Part shown: positions 3,073-10,087 of the stretch, piece by piece
Position numbering within the stretch: the stretch's first letter is position 1
Layout of the letters: each line of letters opens with the position of its first letter
DNA from: a virus
Taxonomy: Duplodnaviria > Heunggongvirae > Uroviricota > Caudoviricetes
DNA length: 10,087 nt
Virus record (IMG/VR): IMGVR_UViG_2619619129_000007
Location: 1-10,087 of that record
Strand: one strand, 5' to 3'
The notes under the pieces: generated by a model
The model's database searches: none
Told to the model about the DNA's origin: nothing
What the model saw: only the letters and a program-made list of their open reading frames with translations
Program-made: the position numbers and the translations under genes

Positions 3073-3143
3073 ACCAAAGCATGACATCTCTGTTTCGCAC
3101 CGAAGGTGACACTTCTGCTTTGCGTTGACAGGAGAAGCAGGCT

Positions 3144-3299
3144 ATGAAGCAGCAAAAGGCGATGTTAATCGCCCTGATCGTCATCTGTTTAACCGTCATA
3201 GTGACGGCACTGGTAACGAGGAAAGACCTCTACGAGGTACGAATCCGAACCGGCCAGACGGAGGTCGCTGTCTTCACAGCTTACGAACCTGAGGAGTAA
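3144..3299 (+). CDS. hokD: Hok-family type I membrane toxin (HokD/RelF-like, 51 aa), third gene of the relBEF operon; carries Tyr at the usually conserved Cys position
   Basis: Not in the ORF track (under 60 aa). ATG at 3144 preceded by GGAGAAG; translation MKQQKAMLIALIVICLTVIVTALVTRKDLYEVRIRTGQTEVAVFTAYEPEE. Hok/Gef proteins normally read RKDLCEV here; this copy has TAC (Tyr). Confidence 0.85.
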   Translation: MKQQKAMLIALIVICLTVIVTALVTRKDLYEVRIRTGQTEVAVFTAYEPEE

Positions 3300-3306
3300 G
3301 AGACCA

Positions 3307-3328
3307 GGCGAGGGAGAAATCCCTCGCC
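3307..3328 (+). other. Stable GNRA-tetraloop hairpin in the hokD 3' untranslated region (possible fold-back/stability element)
   Basis: GGCGAGGGA-GAAA-TCCCTCGCC: 9-bp perfect stem closed by a GAAA loop, 8 nt after the hokD stop, with no U tract following. Confidence 0.5.
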
Positions 3329-3367
3329 ACCTCTGATGAGTCAGGCATCCTCAACGCACCCGCACTT

Positions 3368-3394
3368 AACCCGCTTCGGCGGGTTTTGTTTTTT
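3368..3394 (+). terminator. Rho-independent terminator ending the relB-relE-hokD operon
   Basis: CCCGC-TTCG-GCGGG stem-loop (3370-3383) followed by TTTTGTTTTTT. Confidence 0.65.
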
Positions 3395-3466
3395 CCTGGC
3401 ATTCTGGTTTACAATTCGCACGCCAGCCTGAACAACTGGCACCTGCTGCGCCAGCAGAGACAACCG

Positions 3467-3745
3467 ATGGCGCACGATACCAAATTACACAATTCTGATG
3501 ATTCTGCCGTCTTTGCCAGCAGGCACGGGCGGCGTTCCCGCACTTTCAAATCTGACTGGTTCCAGCATCCCCCATGCACTGAAGAACAGGCCGAGTGGCT
3601 AATTCAGTGCTACCGCAGACACGGATACGAGATTAAGAAAGCCCTCAGCCTCGATTATCGTCACTGGATAATCTCCGTCAGGCTTCCTTACTCCGAGCGC
3701 CCACCGCGTCCGTCCCGCACATACCAGCAACGGATCTGGAGGTAA
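3467..3745 (+). CDS. Hypothetical small protein, Rem-like by position (between hokD and ydfU as in K-12 Qin)
   Basis: ORF MAHDTKLHNSDDSAVFASRHGRRSRTFKSDWFQHPPCTEEQAEWLIQCYRRHGYEIKKALSLDYRHWIISVRLPYSERPPRPSRTYQQRIWR. The first in-frame ATG is at 3467; the track's 3386 start is a TTG inside the terminator U tract. The stop lies within GGAGGTAACGTG, which supplies the RBS and GTG start of the next gene. Identity to rem is positional only. Confidence 0.5.
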   Translation: MAHDTKLHNSDDSAVFASRHGRRSRTFKSDWFQHPPCTEEQAEWLIQCYRRHGYEIKKALSLDYRHWIISVRLPYSERPPRPSRTYQQRIWR

Positions 3746-3746
3746 C

Positions 3747-4796
3747 GTGCGGATATTACTTCGACCTGTTCTGGTACCGGAACTCGGGCTTGTGGTCCTT
3801 AGGCCGGGCTGTGAATCCATGCAAGTATTTCATAACCCTCGAGTGCTGGTGGAGCCTGAACCGAAAAGCATGCGTAATCTGCCGTCCGGGGTCGTTCCTG
3901 CCGTTCGCCAGCCGCTAGTGGAAGACAAAACATTGCTGCCGTTTTTCAGTAACGCACGGGTGATTCGTGCTGCTGGTGGTGCTGGTGCATTGTCTGACTG
4001 GCTGTTGCGCCATATTAAATCCTGCCAGTGGCCACACGGCGATTATCATCACAGCGAAACCGTCATTCACCGTTATGGTACCGGCGCAATGGTGTTGTGC
4101 TGGCACTGCGACAACCAGTTGCGTGACCAGACATCCGAATCACTCGAGCAACTTGCTCATCAAAACCTGTCAGCATGGATGATTGACGTCATCGGTCACG
4201 CAATAAGCGGTACGCAGGAGCGTGAATTATCTCTGGCTGAATTATCCTGGTGGGCGGTCCGCAATCAGGTGGCGGACGCGCTACCGGAAGCGGTATTACG
4301 TCGTTCGCTGGGGTTGCGTGCGGAAAAAATCCGCTCAATGTACCGTGAAAGCGACATCGTGCCGGGAGAGCAGACCGCCACCAGCATACTGAAACAGCGC
4401 ACAAAAAATCTTGCGCCGCTGCCTCACGCCCACCAGCAACAGAACCCACCACAGGAAAAGACGGTGGTCAGCATTGCCGTTGATCCTGAGTCTCCGGAAT
4501 CTTTCATGAAACGACCTAAACGTCGCCGCTGGGTTAACGAGAAATACACACGCTGGGTGAAGACACAGCCGTGTGCGTGTTGTGGTAAGCCAGCCGACGA
4601 TCCCCATCACCTGATTGGTCATGGTCAGGGCGGAATGGGGACAAAATCTCACGATATTTTCACGCTACCGCTGTGTCGGGAGCATCACAACGAGCTTCAT
4701 GCGGATCCGCTGGCGTTCGAAGAAAAGCATGGTTCTCAGGTTGATTTAATTTTTCGTTTTCTTGATCACGCCTTTGCAACTGGCGTGCTTGGGTAA
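3747..4796 (+). CDS. ydfU: DUF968-family protein (YdfU-like), with a C-terminal HNH-like Cys/His motif
   Basis: 349-aa ORF from a GTG at 3747 with GGAGG 5 nt upstream. The C-terminus carries CACCGKPADDPHHLIGHGQGG...CREHHNELH. Length and position match my recollection of K-12 Qin ydfU. Confidence 0.72.
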   Translation: MRILLRPVLVPELGLVVLRPGCESMQVFHNPRVLVEPEPKSMRNLPSGVVPAVRQPLVEDKTLLPFFSNARVIRAAGGAGALSDWLLRHIKSCQWPHGDYHHSETVIHRYGTGAMVLCWHCDNQLRDQTSESLEQLAHQNLSAWMIDVIGHAISGTQERELSLAELSWWAVRNQVADALPEAVLRRSLGLRAEKIRSMYRESDIVPGEQTATSILKQRTKNLAPLPHAHQQQNPPQEKTVVSIAVDPESPESFMKRPKRRRWVNEKYTRWVKTQPCACCGKPADDPHHLIGHGQGGMGTKSHDIFTLPLCREHHNELHADPLAFEEKHGSQVDLIFRFLDHAFATGVLG

Positions 4797-4808
4797 AAGA
4801 GGTGACTG

Positions 4809-5165
4809 ATGCTCATAGATTTGGTTTTACCTTACCCACCGACGGTGAACACTTACTGGCGACGCCGTGGCAGCACATATTTTATCTCGGAGGAGGGAAA
4901 GCGTTATCGCCGGGCTGTGGCGCTTATTGTTCGCCAGCAGCGGCTGAAATTAAGCCTGTCCGGAAGGCTGGCGATAAAGGTGATTGCAGAGCCACCGGAT
5001 AAGCGTCGTCGCGACCTGGACAATATCCTGAAAGCACCGCTGGATGCGCTGACGCATGCGGGAGTGTTAATGGACGATGAGCAGTTTGATGAAATCAATA
5101 TCGTTCGTGGTCAGCCAGTATCTGGTGGACGTCTGGGGGTGAAGATTTACCCCATAATGCATTAA
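4809..5165 (+). CDS. rusA: RusA-family Holliday junction resolvase
   Basis: 118-aa translation contains PPDKRRRDLDNILKAPLDALTHAGVLMDDEQ, matching the RusA acidic catalytic region and size; RBS AGAGGTG upstream; sits just upstream of Q as in lambdoid phages. Confidence 0.85.
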   Translation: MLIDLVLPYPPTVNTYWRRRGSTYFISEEGKRYRRAVALIVRQQRLKLSLSGRLAIKVIAEPPDKRRRDLDNILKAPLDALTHAGVLMDDEQFDEINIVRGQPVSGGRLGVKIYPIMH

Positions 5166-5179
5166 GAGCAGGTCAAAAA

Positions 5180-6001
5180 ATGAAACTGGAAGATTTACCG
5201 AAATACTACTCCCCAAAATCCCCTGGCCTGACCGATGCATCGGCCTCAACGTCAAAAGATGCGCTGAGTATCACTGATGTGATGGCCGCGCAGGGCATGA
5301 CACAGAATCGGGCTGAGATGGGTTTTTCTGCGTTCCTGGGGAAAATGGGCATCAGTATGAATGACAGGGCGCGGGCAACAGAATTACTGGCAGATTATGC
5401 ACTCAGTCGGTGCGATCGTGTGGCGGCGTTGAGAAAACTTCCGGCAGAAATAAAACCGGTAGTGATGCGCATTATGGCTTCGTACGCTTTTGAGGATTAT
5501 GCCCGTAGCGCAGCGAGTAAAAAGCAGTGCCCTTGTTGCTATGGGGAAAAATTTATTGAAAGCGTAGTTTTTACAAACAAGGTCCAGTATCCGGATGGTA
5601 AGCCGCCGGTATGGGCAAAGTGTACGAAAGGTGTGTATTCGTCTTACTGGGAAGAATGGAAAAAAGTCAGGGAGGTGGTAAAAGTTGCCTGTCCGGAGTG
5701 TGGCGGAAAGGGTGAGGTTTCCACCGCCTGTAAGGATTGCCGTGGGCGTGGTGTCGCCATTCATCGTGAAGAGTCGGTAAAACGTGGTATGCCTGTTATC
5801 AGAGACTGCCAGCGTTGTGGTGGTCGTGGCTATGAAAGACTACCATCAACGGAGGCATTTAATGCTATATGCGAGGTGACAAACCAGATAACACGCGCGT
5901 CATGGGAAAAAACAGTTAAGAAATTCTATGATGCGCTGGTGACCCGGTTTGATGTTGAAGAAGCATGGGCTGAGCGGCAGTTAAAAAAGGTAACTAGGTA
6001 A
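5180..6001 (+). CDS. Late-gene antitermination protein Q-like (273 aa) with DnaJ-like CxxCxGxG zinc-finger repeats
   Basis: Located between rusA and a pR'/tR'-like promoter-terminator pair. Contains CPCCYGEKF, CPECGGKGEV, CKDCRGRGV and CQRCGGRGYE. Assignment rests on position and these motifs, not on an alignment. Confidence 0.7.
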   Translation: MKLEDLPKYYSPKSPGLTDASASTSKDALSITDVMAAQGMTQNRAEMGFSAFLGKMGISMNDRARATELLADYALSRCDRVAALRKLPAEIKPVVMRIMASYAFEDYARSAASKKQCPCCYGEKFIESVVFTNKVQYPDGKPPVWAKCTKGVYSSYWEEWKKVREVVKVACPECGGKGEVSTACKDCRGRGVAIHREESVKRGMPVIRDCQRCGGRGYERLPSTEAFNAICEVTNQITRASWEKTVKKFYDALVTRFDVEEAWAERQLKKVTR

Positions 6002-6006
6002 CAAGG

Positions 6007-6034
6007 TTGATTTTTCCGGAATCTGTGGTAAATT
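6007..6034 (+). promoter_or_regulatory. Candidate late promoter pR' (extended -10) immediately downstream of Q
   Basis: TTGATT (6007-6012), 16-bp spacer, TGgTAAATT (6026-6034), placed as pR' is in lambdoid phages. Confidence 0.5.
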
Positions 6035-6082
6035 CGTCATAATAATGGGCTTTTTATGCCTGACGTTAGAAGAGTTTCTACA

Positions 6083-6107
6083 ACCCGCCGCCGAGCGGGT
6101 TTTTTAT
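6083..6107 (+). terminator. tR'-like intrinsic terminator (expected Q antitermination target)
   Basis: CCCGC-CGCCGA-GCGGG hairpin followed by TTTTTTATT, about 60 nt downstream of the candidate pR'. Confidence 0.6.
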
Positions 6108-6144
6108 TGCGGAATTAATTACGGACCGTTATTATTCTGCTCCC

Positions 6145-6220
6145 GGCCCTTTAGCTCAGTGGTGAGAGCGAGCGACTCATAATCGCCAGGTCGCTGGTTC
6201 AAATCCAGCAAGGGCCACCA
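6145..6220 (+). tRNA. ileZ: tRNA with CAU anticodon, ileX/ileZ-like (tRNA-Ile2, lysidine-type; tRNA-Met not excluded), CCA encoded
   Basis: Manual cloverleaf: acceptor GGCCCTT/AAGGGCC, D-arm GCTC...GAGC, anticodon loop CTCATAA (CAT at 6178-6180), T-arm GCTGG-TTCAAAT-CCAGC, discriminator A plus CCA. Resembles E. coli ileX from memory. Confidence 0.85.
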
Positions 6221-6320
6221 TCACAAACCGCCATTAGCTTATCAGGAAGAGCAGACGACACGATAACAGGGTTGTTGGTGCGGGGGCGGGTCCCCGATGG
6301 CGGTCCATTATCGGTATTCA

Positions 6321-6394
6321 GCGTTGTTAGCTCAGCCGGACAGAGCAATTGCCTTCTAAGCAATCGGTCACTGGTTCGAATCCAGTACAGCGCG
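6321..6394 (+). tRNA. argO: tRNA-Arg (anticodon UCU), argO-like, CCA not encoded
   Basis: Manual cloverleaf: acceptor GCGTTGT/ACAGCGC (one G-U pair), anticodon stem ATTGC/GCAAT, loop CTTCTAA (TCT at 6355-6357), T-arm ACTGG-TTCGAAT-CCAGT, discriminator G. Confidence 0.85.
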
Positions 6395-6534
6395 CTATAT
6401 TCATTCTTCCAGATTCCTTCCGGCAGAGCCTTATACTGAAATATACCTGGCTCAGGATATTGTTGAAAATATTTTATGTTTGTCAAAAATAAAAGTTCTG
6501 TTAAGTATTGATTGAGTGTTTGTTATACGGTCTA

Positions 6535-6861
6535 ATGGTTTTTTCAGCATTAAATATTTATCATTCATATGGTGTGGGTAGAGTGAATATTGATGAGGCG
6601 TCGGGGTGTTTCATCCTTAGGCAGCGTATTGATATAGTCAATGCAGGACGAGCAAAGGCCTTCAGCCGTTTGACAGTTTTGTTCTGTACTCCTGATCGTC
6701 TTTCGGGAAGAGACGTTATTATTCTGAATAGTGATGCTATACAGAGGGTTTGCGATGAGTTCATGGTTGCTAATTCAGAATTATTTGCTCTTGTTCAGGA
6801 GTACAACAGAATAGCCAGGACCTGTGGTATGGATGAACTTCGGATTACTCATCTGGGGTAG
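6535..6861 (+). CDS. Hypothetical cargo protein (about 108 aa), unrecognised
   Basis: ORF in moderately AT-rich DNA after tRNA-Arg. First in-frame ATG at 6535 (track start 6508 is a TTG); in-frame GTGs at 6574 and 6583 are alternatives. Candidate promoter TTGTCA-N16-TAAGTA at about 6478-6505. No family recognised; coding status unproven. Confidence 0.4.
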   Translation: MVFSALNIYHSYGVGRVNIDEASGCFILRQRIDIVNAGRAKAFSRLTVLFCTPDRLSGRDVIILNSDAIQRVCDEFMVANSELFALVQEYNRIARTCGMDELRITHLG

Positions 6862-7253
6862 ATACATATCTGGATTATCACTTGTTACGGTAAAAAGTGA
6901 TTGCTTACTGTTTTTGTGAGTGGCATTGCAGCAGCCGGATAATGTCAGTGCTGGCTGACGGTGTGCTGGTGGCGGGTGTGGTGGTTGTTGCTTTCCCGTT
7001 GCTGAAAAAGAAAACGCCAGACTGTTAGCCGGGTATCAGTTAGCGGGAGAAATTTTTAAATACTTCACAATTCAGGCGGTTGACTGTTGTCTGGTTTGCG
7101 GGGAGTTTGTTAAAAGAAACTGGCATGGTGAATCCCCCTGTGCGGAGGGGCAATCAGCGAGTAGGTATATGGGATAATCGCGGATTCAGGTGCTGGTACT
7201 GAATTCACCGGGAGGCACCCGGCACCATGCAATGGCACATAGCGCCACTCTCC

Positions 7254-7290
7254 AGCCCCTCTCCGGAGGGGCTGTTTATATTGATTTTGT
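7254..7290 (+). terminator. Strong intrinsic terminator closing the plus-strand cargo unit
   Basis: AGCCCCTC-TCCG-GAGGGGCT: 8-bp perfect stem, followed on the + strand by GTTTATATTGATTTTGT. No U tract on the minus side. Confidence 0.6.
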
Positions 7291-7308
7291 CAGATGTGAG
7301 TAAACTCC

Positions 7309-7644
7309 TTATGGACTTTGTTGTTTTAGTCCATAAGGACATATTTGCAGAGTGCAACGGTTATTAAAGCATTCATTCAATACGTTATCTGTATTTGTAG
7401 GACATTCCTGGCTGTTTTTGATTAAATTCCAGAATGTTTTATTGAATGGTACTACGTTGTAAATGGTTACAGGTAGCACTTTGTTATTGAGCATGATACC
7501 TGTGTGAGTCAGTGTAAATATACTTTCAGGAGGTAAGAAAGCATCCGATTGATACCAGATTATTAATTTTATTTTACTCCATATGACTGAAAAAGATATT
7601 CCGCATGATGGCTGGATAACTGTATCAATCACAATCCACTTCAT
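7309..7644 (-). CDS. Hypothetical Cys-containing protein (111 aa) in strongly AT-rich DNA, transcribed against the late operon
   Basis: Minus-strand ORF with a good RBS (AAGGAAGCTAA then ATG at 7644). Translation [43 protein letters not shown]...[31 protein letters not shown]. No family recognised. Confidence 0.5.
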
Positions 7645-7904
7645 TTAGCTTCCTTGTTTATGCCTTGCTGGTGATGTTCTGAAAAGTATAAATGATATTT
7701 TTGAATATAAACCATAGAGCAGAATTATTTTTCTGATGTTGTTTATTGTTTATTTAAATGCAGGGTGGTTTATATCTCGTCTTGTAGTTTATCCATGCAT
7801 ATCTGCTTGATGATCAGGTTTCTATTTAAGGTATGGTTTTGTGTTTTTTCTGTGTTACATGTCTGGTATTTTAAAGAATTATTTTTCAGATGGTGGAAAG
7901 AACC

Positions 7905-8093
7905 ATGGCATTTAAACACTATGATGTTGTCAGGGCGGCGCCGCCGTCAGATCTTGCGGAAAAGCTGACACATAAACTGAAAGAGGGCTGGCAGCCGTTT
8001 GGTAGTCCGGTGGCCATAACCCCTTATACCCTGATGCAGGCGATTGCAGCAGAAGGTGATGTGGTGGTCAGTGGTGCAACTGAGCCCGAGTGA
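7905..8093 (+). CDS. Small DUF1737-like phage protein commonly found just upstream of holin genes
   Basis: Translation MAFKHYDVVRAAPPSDLAEKLTHKLKEGWQPFGSPVAITPYTLMQAIAAEGDVVVSGATEPE. Start chosen at the ATG at 7905 (GGAAAG upstream) rather than the track's 7890. Family name recalled from memory. Confidence 0.65.
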   Translation: MAFKHYDVVRAAPPSDLAEKLTHKLKEGWQPFGSPVAITPYTLMQAIAAEGDVVVSGATEPE

Positions 8094-8335
8094 TACTACG
8101 TCATCGTACTGGCCCGGCATTCCAGGCCATAAAAGACAGTCTGGCAGTGGGACTAAATGTACTGACGCTGACGGATATTACCAAAAATGCAACGTATGGC
8201 GTTGAGATAGAAAGTCTGGTGCTGGAGATAAATGCACCGGCATCATCATAAAAAGTGAGCCAGTCAAATGGAAGGTATCGTTAAACTCACCGGTAGTGTC
8301 AGTGGATCGTCTGAGACGCTTGCATGAGTTATCAG

Positions 8336-8368
8336 AGCCATCAGTAGTTAACTGGTGGCTTTTTTATT
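8336..8368 (+). terminator. Intrinsic terminator-like hairpin about 35 bp upstream of the holin start
   Basis: AGCCATCAG-TAGTTAA-CTGGTGGCT: 9-bp stem with one G-U pair, followed by TTTTTTATT. Confidence 0.5.
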
Positions 8369-8400
8369 GTTGTCAGCTTCCGGATAACGGGAGACGGGGT

Positions 8401-8616
8401 ATGGACCAGATGGAAAAAATCACAACAGGTGTGTCATACACCACGTCAGCGGTGGGAACGGGCTACTGGTTCCTGCAGTTGCTGGACAGGGTTTCCCCGT
8501 CTCAGTGGGCGGCAATAGGCGTGCTGGGGAGTCTGCTGTTTGGGCTGCTGACATATCTGACTAACCTGTATTTCAAAATCAGAGAGGACCGTCGTAAGGC
8601 GGCACGGGGAGAGTAA
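8401..8616 (+). CDS. Class II holin of the phage 21 S21 pinholin family (71 aa), with dual-start motif M-D-Q-M
   Basis: Translation [71 protein letters not shown] closely resembles S21 as recalled (...[14 protein letters not shown]...[21 protein letters not shown]). The track ORF from 8296 is an in-frame upstream extension. Confidence 0.88.
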
Positions 8617-8620
8617 TTCA

Positions 8621-8971
8621 ATGACTCAAAACTATGAACTGATTGTGAAAGGGATCCGCAATTTTGAGAATAAAGTTACGGTAACTTTAGCGTTACGGGA
8701 CAAAAAACGCTTTGACGGTGAAATTTTTGACCTGGACATCTCGCTGGACCGTGTTGAAGGTGCCGCGCTGGAGTTTTATGAGGCAGCAGCCAGAATGAGC
8801 ATCAGACAGGTCTTCCTGGATGTTGCTGCCGGGTTATGTGAAGGGGATGAGCAGTCGCCGGAAAAGCGCCCCGTAATTTTAGAGGCGCAGAATGTATGGA
8901 TAACCTACAAAGGAAAGCTACCGGGAAGAATTACTGGTTCTCTGAAGACTCCTCCGGAATCACAACCTTAA
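8621..8971 (+). CDS. Hypothetical protein between holin and endolysin, YdfR-like (possibly DUF1327)
   Basis: 116-aa ORF starting 5 nt after the holin stop: MTQNYELIVKGIRNFENKVTVTLALRDKKRFDGEIFDLDISLDRVEGAALEFYEAAARMSIRQVFLDVAAG... A gene occupies this slot in K-12 Qin (ydfR); family number is from uncertain memory. Confidence 0.6.
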   Translation: MTQNYELIVKGIRNFENKVTVTLALRDKKRFDGEIFDLDISLDRVEGAALEFYEAAARMSIRQVFLDVAAGLCEGDEQSPEKRPVILEAQNVWITYKGKLPGRITGSLKTPPESQP

Positions 8972-9034
8972 GTCACTGACCGGAACAGATAAACCTGTCC
9001 GTGGGCAGAAACCGATAAATCCTGATAAATATCC

Positions 9035-9568
9035 ATGAACGCAAAAATCAGATACGGCCTGTCGGCTGCCGTTCTGGCACTGATTGCCGTCGGTGCGCCC
9101 GCGCCTGATATTCTCGACCAGTTTCTGGATGAAAAAGAAGGTAACCACACAACGGCATACCGCGATGGGTCCGGCATCTGGACCATCTGTCGGGGTGCCA
9201 CGATGGTGGATGGAAAACCCGTTTTTCCCGGTATGAAACTGTCGAAGGAAAAATGCGACCAGGTCAACGCCATTGAGCGTGATAAGGCGCTGGCATGGGT
9301 GGAGCGCAATATTAAAGTACTACTGACCGAACCACAAAAAGCGGGTATAGCGTCATTCTGTCCCTATAACATTGGCCCCGGTAAGTGTTTCCCGTCGACG
9401 TTTTATAAGCGGCTGAATGCCGGTGATCGTAAGGGCGCATGCGAGGCGATTCGCTGGTGGATAAAAGATGGTGGGCGCGATTGCCGCATACGTTCAAATA
9501 ACTGCTATGGACAGGTTATTCGTCGTGACCAGGAAAGCGCATTAGCCTGTTGGGGGATAGAGCAGTGA
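9035..9568 (+). CDS. SAR endolysin (phage lysozyme with N-terminal signal-anchor-release domain), R21/RrrQ-like, 177 aa
   Basis: N-terminal Gly/Ala-rich weakly hydrophobic segment [16 protein letters not shown] followed by a lysozyme-like E...D...T region ([22 protein letters not shown]). Pairs naturally with the pinholin. No obvious SD upstream. Confidence 0.85.
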
Positions 9569-10026
9569 GCAGAGTCGCCGCGATTATTTATGCTTTGGTT
9601 ATCTGCATCATCGTCTGCCTGTCGTGGGCGGTCAATCATTACCGTGATAACGCCATCGCCTACAAAGAACAGCGTGATAAAAAAGTCAGTGAGCTGAAGC
9701 AGTCGATCGCCACCATCGCTGACATGCAGCAGCGTCAGCGTGATGTTGCTGCACTCGATGCAAAGTACTCGAGAGAATTAGCCAATGCGAAAGCTGAAAA
9801 TGAAACTCTGCGCGCTGATGTTGCCGCTGGTCGTCGTCGGTTGCACATCAAAGCAGTCTGTCAGTCAGTGCGTGAAGCCACCACCGCCTCCGGCGTGGAT
9901 AATGCAACCAGCCCCCGACTGGCAGACACCGCTGAACGGGATTATTTCACCCTCAGAGAGAGGCTGATCACTATGCAAAAACAACTGGAAGGAACCCAGA
10001 AGTATATTAATGAGCAGTGCAGATAG
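9562..10026 (+). CDS. Rz inner-membrane spanin (i-spanin), lambda Rz-like
   Basis: From GTG at 9562: [30 protein letters not shown]...[62 protein letters not shown], near-identical to lambda Rz as I recall it; overlaps the endolysin stop. Confidence 0.9.
9785..9967 (+). CDS. Rz1 outer-membrane lipoprotein spanin (o-spanin), embedded in Rz in the +1 frame
   Basis: [60 protein letters not shown]: signal peptide with lipobox (VVGC), proline-rich mature part, fully nested in Rz as in lambda. Confidence 0.85.
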
Positions 10027-10087
10027 AGCTGCCCATATCGATGGGCAACTCATGCAATTATTGTGAGCAATACACACGCGCTTCCAG

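Follow-up and report, generated by a model that had tools for sequence, protein, structure and literature searches.

What is encoded by an AT-rich open reading frame (ORF) of 111 codons that lies just upstream of a prophage lysis cassette and is read against the late genes? The ORF is found in a 10,087-nt stretch of caudoviral DNA, the whole of which is referred to below as the window, and an earlier note, made from the letters of the sequence, recognised no homolog for it and described it as typical of horizontally acquired lysogenic-conversion or defence genes. The database and structure-prediction searches that the note had proposed were carried out here, and they place the product in the IraM/IraL family, with a fold closest to 8twd_A. 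There is little doubt that this is the gene iraL, which is carried by prophages and is a paralogue of iraM of Escherichia coli K-12, and that it encodes an RssB anti-adaptor; it is a real gene that has already been characterised and already been annotated, and is not new. The features of the locus are collected in Table 1.

Table 1. Features of the iraL locus in the window, and residues of the predicted product that correspond to RssB contacts of IraM
Feature	Position	Strand	Basis or remark
Q-type antiterminator	5180-6001	+	
Two tRNAs, one with CAT anticodon, the other tRNA-Arg (UCU)	6145-6220, 6321-6395	+	CAT tRNA is Met according to ARAGORN, tRNA-Ile (ileZ-like) according to RefSeq
STnc100 sRNA	7094-7283	+	Rfam RF02076, 132 bits (gathering score 47)
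GC-rich hairpin, 35 nt beyond the stop codon of iraL	7253..7274	.	Terminator scan, RNA fold; T-run on the + strand only
iraL coding sequence, 111 aa, IraM/IraL-family RssB anti-adaptor	7309..7644	-	ORF, identity, family profile, fold
Cys4 tail, residues 79-111 (C81, C92, C97, C102)	7309-7410	-	
5' UTR, 33 nt; transcription start 7677	7645..7677	-	Homology to published CFT073 5'-RACE
Shine-Dalgarno AAGGAAG, then 4-nt spacer CTAA, then ATG	7649..7655 (7655-7649)	-	Sequence
-10 hexamer TATACT, 7 nt upstream of the mapped start	7685..7690	-	Sequence
-35-like hexamer TTTATA (TTGACA-like), 15-nt spacer	7706..7711	-	Alignments
DUF1737 ORF, stand-alone, 67 aa	7890-8093	+	Equivalent gene flagged as truncated by PGAP
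Phage-21-type holin, DUF1327/YdfR, lysozyme, Rz/Rz1	Downstream of the DUF1737 ORF	+	
Contact cluster I (N-terminal domain, alpha4-beta5-alpha5 face)	I4, I6, W22, K26, I42		All identical to IraM
Contact cluster II (C-terminal domain)	C14, F18, W30; residues 13 and 75		First three identical; T13S and L75I changed
Contact cluster III (linker and helix 8)	I61, Y62; residues 63 and 64		First two identical; H63N and I64V changed
Contact residue P66	P66		Identical to IraM

The ORF list of the window gives a minus-strand ORF of 111 aa that starts with ATG at 7309-7644, and the strong ribosome-binding site (RBS) reported for it is present. The GC content of the ORF is 0.339 (GC3 0.321) against 0.491 for the whole window, and against 0.47-0.54 for the neighbouring phage genes, which confirms its AT richness relative to the flanks; the 245-nt intergenic stretch upstream of iraL (7645-7889) has a GC content of 0.298. 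The orientation against the late operon was also correctly described, all of the neighbouring genes being on the plus strand. When the region 7201-7900 was shuffled by mononucleotides, an ATG-ORF of at least 111 codons arose in only 5 of 2,000 shuffles. Pairwise dN/dS among seven family genes (the window ORF, CFT073 iraL, K-12 iraM, and the homologues P0002, P0005, P0008 of E. albertii and P0017) was 0.09-0.36 where dS was measurable, and for the tail codons alone it was 0.14-0.36. Because of the shuffles and these ratios, the ORF is considered to be a constrained coding sequence and not a chance occurrence. The number of cysteines in the protein is five (C14, C81, C92, C97 and C102), not six as had been counted. 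A spurious ORF was considered as a separate reading, and it is ruled out by the shuffles, dN/dS and conservation.

The identity of the gene follows from comparison with the uropathogenic locus in which it was named. The translated locus of CFT073 is identical to the window ORF at 111 of 111 residues (WP_000871291.1), and in CFT073 this protein is encoded in a prophage integrated beside potC/potD, with the gene order of the window. The name iraL was given by Hryckowian et al. (2014) to ycgW of CFT073, a gene of the "potB genomic island" (PMC4045071) whose locus tag is c1429 according to a later paper; since the window protein is identical to this IraL, the window ORF is iraL. At the DNA level the two ORFs match at 334 of 336 positions, both differences being synonymous, and 98 of the 100 positions upstream of the mapped transcription start are identical, one of the two differences falling in the putative -35 hexamer; the published criteria for the iraL allele group are nucleotide identities of at least 95% with CFT073 iraL and of at least 96% in the promoter region (PMC4045071). 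Over 701 bases the nucleotide identity is 99%. The identity between IraL and K-12 IraM was reported as 58.9% (PMC4045071), and an ungapped alignment of K-12 IraM with the window protein gave 66 identical residues of 107 (62%).

The family profiles agree with this assignment. Residues 1-110 of the product align with positions 1-113 of the 114 positions of the NCBIfam IraM model NF007393 (162 bits against a cutoff of 121), and the PDB sequence match is 8twd_A, "Anti-adapter protein IraM" (E = 9.1e-32). With these matches and the complete identity to CFT073 IraL, the statement that the ORF has no homolog is refuted, and it cannot be kept as an orphan, being an experimentally characterised RssB anti-adaptor gene (PMC4045071). 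A live Pfam-A scan found no meaningful family for the ORF, for K-12 IraM or for distant relatives, unlike the precomputed annotation, which lists PF11183 (PmrD) for all homologues; given these conflicting Pfam results, the family assignment is based on the NCBIfam, PDB and fold evidence.

The function of IraL has been studied in several strains. CFT073 without iraL contains less RpoS in log phase, with a half-life of about 2.5 min in place of about 5 min; deletion in Shigella sonnei also lowers log-phase RpoS, and in K-12 the log-phase level is raised by a plasmid that carries iraL under its native promoter (PMC4045071). [quoted passage not shown] The iraL mRNA increases by 1.6 log2 on a shift from 23 to 37 C (according to the paper that gives c1429), and IraL is reported to be raised in a fur mutant. 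Binding to RssB and stabilisation of RpoS were thus demonstrated with the CFT073 protein, which is identical to that of the window, and the same activities are predicted from the sequence for the window gene.

On this basis, the window gene would act as follows. It would be transcribed against the direction of the prophage late operon by a sigma-70 promoter of its own, and with such a promoter iraL could be expressed in a lysogen without induction of the prophage. The small cytoplasmic product would bind the response-regulator-like adaptor RssB, probably docking on the alpha4-beta5-alpha5 face of its receiver domain as IraM does in 8TWD, and RssB so bound would be unable to hand RpoS, the stress sigma factor, over to the ClpXP protease. 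RpoS would persist longer, and the general stress regulon would be raised even in growing cells. IraL is prophage cargo that rewires the proteolysis of host RpoS, an example of how temperate phages tune the general stress response of the host. Both this principle and this very protein have already been published; the value for annotation is that an apparent orphan, an AT-rich antisense ORF before a lysis cassette, is settled as iraL.

The promoter that the earlier note had supposed is supported by published mapping. The 5' end of the CFT073 iraL mRNA, determined by 5'-RACE, is ACATCACCAGCAAGGCATAAACAAGGAAACCA, and the promoter was assigned to sigma-70 (PMC4045071). The counterpart of ACATCACCAGCAAGGCATAAACAAGGAAACCA begins at 7677 in the window, with two substitutions near its 3' end, and a TATACT hexamer lies 7 nt before it, so that a promoter of the sigma-70 type belonging to the gene itself is supported. 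TATACT is identical in CFT073 and P0002, and either TATGAT or TATACT is aligned with it in more distant phage-borne paralogues. The window and CFT073 share the prophage slot, the neighbours, the mRNA 5' end and the -10 hexamer as well as the protein. The 258 nt upstream of the ATG contain ten single-base differences, including a C-to-T change in the -35-like hexamer, a G-to-A change at -2 and two bases in the RBS spacer; the RBS region reads GGAAACCAA in CFT073 and GGAAGCTAA in the window, both substitutions lying in the spacer.

The change in the -35-like hexamer concerns base 7707, which is T in the window (TTTATA) and C in CFT073 (TTTACA). We infer that the hexamer is the "predicted -35" of the iraL paper, and base 7707 is plausibly the site of the published mutation of JJ1886 iraL2, a point mutation in the -35 that was recorded in that strain "and other strains", its effect on expression being unknown (PMC4045071). 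In complete genomes the T allele was found in 284 and the C allele in 1,075, by the use of two 55-nt probes centred on 7707, in which a mismatch at that base removes every 28-nt seed; all of the T-allele places are 100% identical over the 55-nt probe. Strain names, taken by themselves, suggest that many of the genomes matching this allele exactly are ETEC isolates. This common natural variant of the promoter is one small lead that remains.

Of the readings other than an active iraL, the one that survives best is that the window allele is transcriptionally weakened or even silent, the C-to-T change at 7707 having damaged the -35-like hexamer, and that it contributes little to the stability of RpoS in its host. 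We consider this unlikely. The TTACA core that the window lacks is kept in CFT073, P0002, P0005 (the copy of a Stx phage) and P0017 in an alignment of the upstream regions, and the last three have a synonymous divergence from the window gene of 0.14-1.8; the 15-nt spacer is already suboptimal, and a -35 mutation is on record for JJ1886 iraL2. Against long-term silence stands the fact that the T allele is so common and is accompanied by an intact ORF with only synonymous changes relative to CFT073. The -10 hexamer, the region of the transcription start and the RBS are also intact, and the correspondence of 7707 to the -35 position of the paper is our own deduction. The window allele of iraL is probably still expressed despite the substitution.

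The other signals around the gene were also surveyed. A search for a PhoP box of the kind to be expected before iraM gave one GGTTTA half-site, and the second half-site was not found. The terminator scan gave no clear intrinsic terminator after iraL on the minus strand. Since the T-run of the hairpin at 7253-7274 is on the plus strand only, the hairpin is taken as the terminator of STnc100, and for iraL it is at best a weak stop. STnc100 and iraL are convergent, with 25 nt between the end of the sRNA and the iraL stop codon, and the hairpin of the sRNA is the only one downstream of iraL. According to a preprint of 2026, STnc100 is related to the PasD prophage sRNAs. PGAP annotates a "partial hypothetical protein" pseudogene opposite STnc100, equivalent to 7113-7238 of the window, and this pseudogene is probably spurious.

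The structure predicted for the protein consists of a core (residues 1-78) with a beta-barrel, a hairpin and a helix, followed by a Cys4 tail (residues 79-111). In both of two AlphaFold models there are strands at residues 2-11, 16-22, 26-33, 42-45, 49-52 and 55-66 and a helix at 69-77, a succession that agrees with the one published for IraM, and the pLDDT over residues 1-78 is about 75-96 (as block means over 1-80). Foldseek against the PDB gave 8twd_A as the best match to the model (TM 0.91, rmsd 1.2 A, 65% identity), and the window protein is therefore modelled with the IraM fold, namely an antiparallel beta-barrel, a flanking beta-hairpin and a C-terminal alpha-helix. The IraM structure paper lists 15 IraM residues as contacts with RssB, in clusters I to III plus Pro66 (PMC10844676); 11 of the 15 are identical in the window protein and four are conservatively substituted (Table 1). 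The substitutions are confined to the clusters that touch the C-terminal domain and the linker, a pattern that would fit the interaction of IraL with the N-terminal domain only.

The next Foldseek matches were the PmrD structures 4hn7, 2jso and 2rqx (TM 0.70-0.75, identity 13-21%), and PmrD is described as the only structural relative of IraM in the paper that describes the IraM fold (PMC10844676). PmrD (4HN7) has the same unusual small beta-barrel (TM 0.75, rmsd 2.0 A, 14% identity), and both PmrD and IraM/IraL are small proteins that bind the receiver domain of a response regulator; PmrD differs in having 85 aa and no Cys4 tail at its C-terminus, and in its partner, which is PmrA and not RssB. 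One could therefore suppose that the window protein is a PmrD-like connector whose target is not RssB but another response regulator, and that it shields PmrA-P, for instance, from dephosphorylation, as the precomputed PF11183 label would suggest, and the IraM paper notes not only the same resemblance but also that IraM and PmrD both raise the net phosphorylation of their partners (PMC10844676). Such a role is very improbable: the identity to PmrD is far below the 65% to IraM obtained in the same Foldseek search, the identical CFT073 protein binds RssB and stabilises RpoS (PMC4045071), and the RssB-contact residues are conserved.

The cysteines in the tail of the RssB anti-adaptor appear to have been left unstudied. 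The IraM construct that was crystallised is without the tail, which was called less conserved and flexible (PMC10844676), and the IraM structure paper mentions neither zinc nor cysteine; a second paper that was checked does not discuss them for IraM either. In family alignments the tail follows the motif C-P-x(9-10)-C-x(4-5)-C-x4-C-P-[YFW]-G. A profile search of 1.84 billion representative proteins gave 93 relatives at E <= 0.001, and the members named in ten clusters come from Salmonella, Citrobacter, Enterobacter, Klebsiella, Intestinirhabdus and Dryocola and all bear the name "IraM". In an alignment of 44 sequences with 20-98% identity, whose named members also include Escherichia beside these six genera, the only invariant columns are C81, C97 and C102, with conservation of 90% or more at C92 and P103; in another alignment of 29 sequences, which reaches down to 20% identity, the tail cysteines dominate the invariant columns. 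By these alignments, conservation across the IraM/IraL family as a whole is highest at the four cysteines of the tail.

We tentatively propose, with somewhat more doubt than confidence, that the tail is a conserved four-cysteine metal-binding module, which would most likely be a structural zinc site and might be redox-sensitive. The pLDDT of the tail was only 48-65 in AlphaFold with a deeper alignment. If the proposal is true, the stability or activity of the anti-adaptor could depend on zinc or on thiol oxidation, which would be an unrecognised input into the control of RpoS, and the reported instability and insolubility of full-length IraM might find an explanation. The tail, apparently overlooked, is the second small lead that remains.

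The position of iraL in the prophage is a recurrent one. It lies antisense between the Q antiterminator and tRNAs on one side and the holin-endolysin cassette on the other, and the context is that of CFT073: Q, tRNAs, DUF3927, STnc100, antisense iraL, DUF1737, holin, YdfR and lysozyme. All four loci of diverged paralogues that were fetched (4/4) have the gene antisense between the Q region and a DUF1737/nanS-p gene followed by a holin. The IraM/IraL family thus occupies a conserved moron slot in the late regions of lambdoid phages. The prophage of CFT073 has three tRNAs plus IS200 where the window has two tRNAs, and the prophage of the window is a different mosaic from that of CFT073, with a left arm that contains IS26, a HEC-08 gene and relBE. 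At related loci the iraM-like ORF is followed by a gene for a DUF1737-SASA-DUF6645 protein of 616-668 aa, of the nanS-p esterase type. The prophage of the window seems to have lost most of such a nanS-p-type gene.

A close parallel is found in Stx2-converting phages. Phages 1717 and 2851 and the Stx2c phages (P0005) carry an IraM-like protein that is 72-76% identical to IraL and also has 111 aa, and its gene, like iraL in the window, is antisense and upstream of a DUF1737/nanS-p gene and a holin; at the aligned upstream positions it has a TATGAT -10 and the TTACA core of the -35. The difference is that the Stx2-phage copy is directly downstream of stxA-stxB, whereas iraL in the window is downstream of DUF3927/STnc100. 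A tblastn search of a phage collection gave homologues in 46 records, of which 32 are Stx2-converting phages by organism name, and in most of the phage records sampled no feature is annotated under the match. At the loci L004 (3206-3541) and L005 (3173-3508), the IraM/IraL homologue is antisense right after stxA-stxB, and one assembly has two Stx-linked IraM/IraL copies.

The paralogue of K-12 offers a different comparison. IraM (b1160; 8TWD, PMC10844676) belongs to the same NF007393 family and shares the predicted fold and the four C-terminal cysteines, and its gene has a similarly low GC content of 0.34. However, iraM is located just outside the e14 attachment site, beside ycgX, and not in an intact late region, and its upstream region is unrelated to that of iraL by alignment. 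The two also differ in regulation, iraM being induced by PhoPQ on Mg2+ starvation and iraL acting in log phase.

That iraL is horizontally carried, as an AT-rich antisense moron of a lambdoid prophage, agrees with one half of the earlier proposal of a lysogenic-conversion or defence gene; the defence half is not sustained. A role in anti-phage defence or superinfection exclusion is the least credible of the readings considered, for while accessory slots of prophages often hold defence genes and a HEC-08 candidate does occur in the window, it lies elsewhere (938-2029), the scan of the iraL ORF against PADLOC-DB 2.0 gave 0 families at E <= 0.01, its role as RssB anti-adaptor is already known and suffices as a function, and the source-named members of the clusters read, which span several enterobacterial genera, are all called IraM. 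The search for a phage lysis or structural protein, a match to which had been named as contrary evidence, gave no holin, endolysin, spanin or virion-protein match for the iraL ORF: lysis is encoded by other ORFs, which lie downstream on the plus strand, and the sole PHROG match is phrog_4407, of unknown function.

The candidate for defence in the window is a minus-strand ORF of 363 aa at 938-2029, whose product is HEPN-like/DUF3644 in its N-terminal part and contains several CxxC motifs of the zinc-ribbon type. The ORF has a match (E = 4.7e-145) to HEC-08, a candidate defence family of PADLOC, and adjoins relB-relE-hokD in the early region of the prophage, and it is likelier than the iraL ORF to be defence cargo. 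The minus-strand gene from position 1 to about 800, cut by the start of the window, we take to encode the IS26 transposase; IS26 explains the 20,840 plasmid matches in the search with the whole window.

The iraL region is widespread in E. coli, as distinct from the window as a whole. The segment 7000-7900 was recovered by megablast with at least 80% coverage in 1,428 of 5,426 complete E. coli genomes, and the ORF alone in 1,446 (about 27%), where it occupies 1,605 places and a single genome has at most three copies. The RefSeq label of the ORF is "anti-adapter protein IraM" in all of the 25 best-matching records listed, and in a spread sample of 30 ORF matches the IraM annotation is found in all, one match covering only 53% of the ORF; roughly, RefSeq already annotates the ORF as an IraM-family anti-adaptor in about 1,440 complete E. 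coli genomes. In the search with the whole window, no complete E. coli genome had it in one piece, the best match covering 69% (bases 3130-10087), and known prophages are collinear with this part only. Within it, a second AT-rich patch (GC 0.41) contains a plus-strand ORF of 117 aa at 6508-6861, for whose equivalent no gene is annotated in the RefSeq records of ATCC 43886 or CFT073, and which matches phrog_2873 (E = 3.5e-70).
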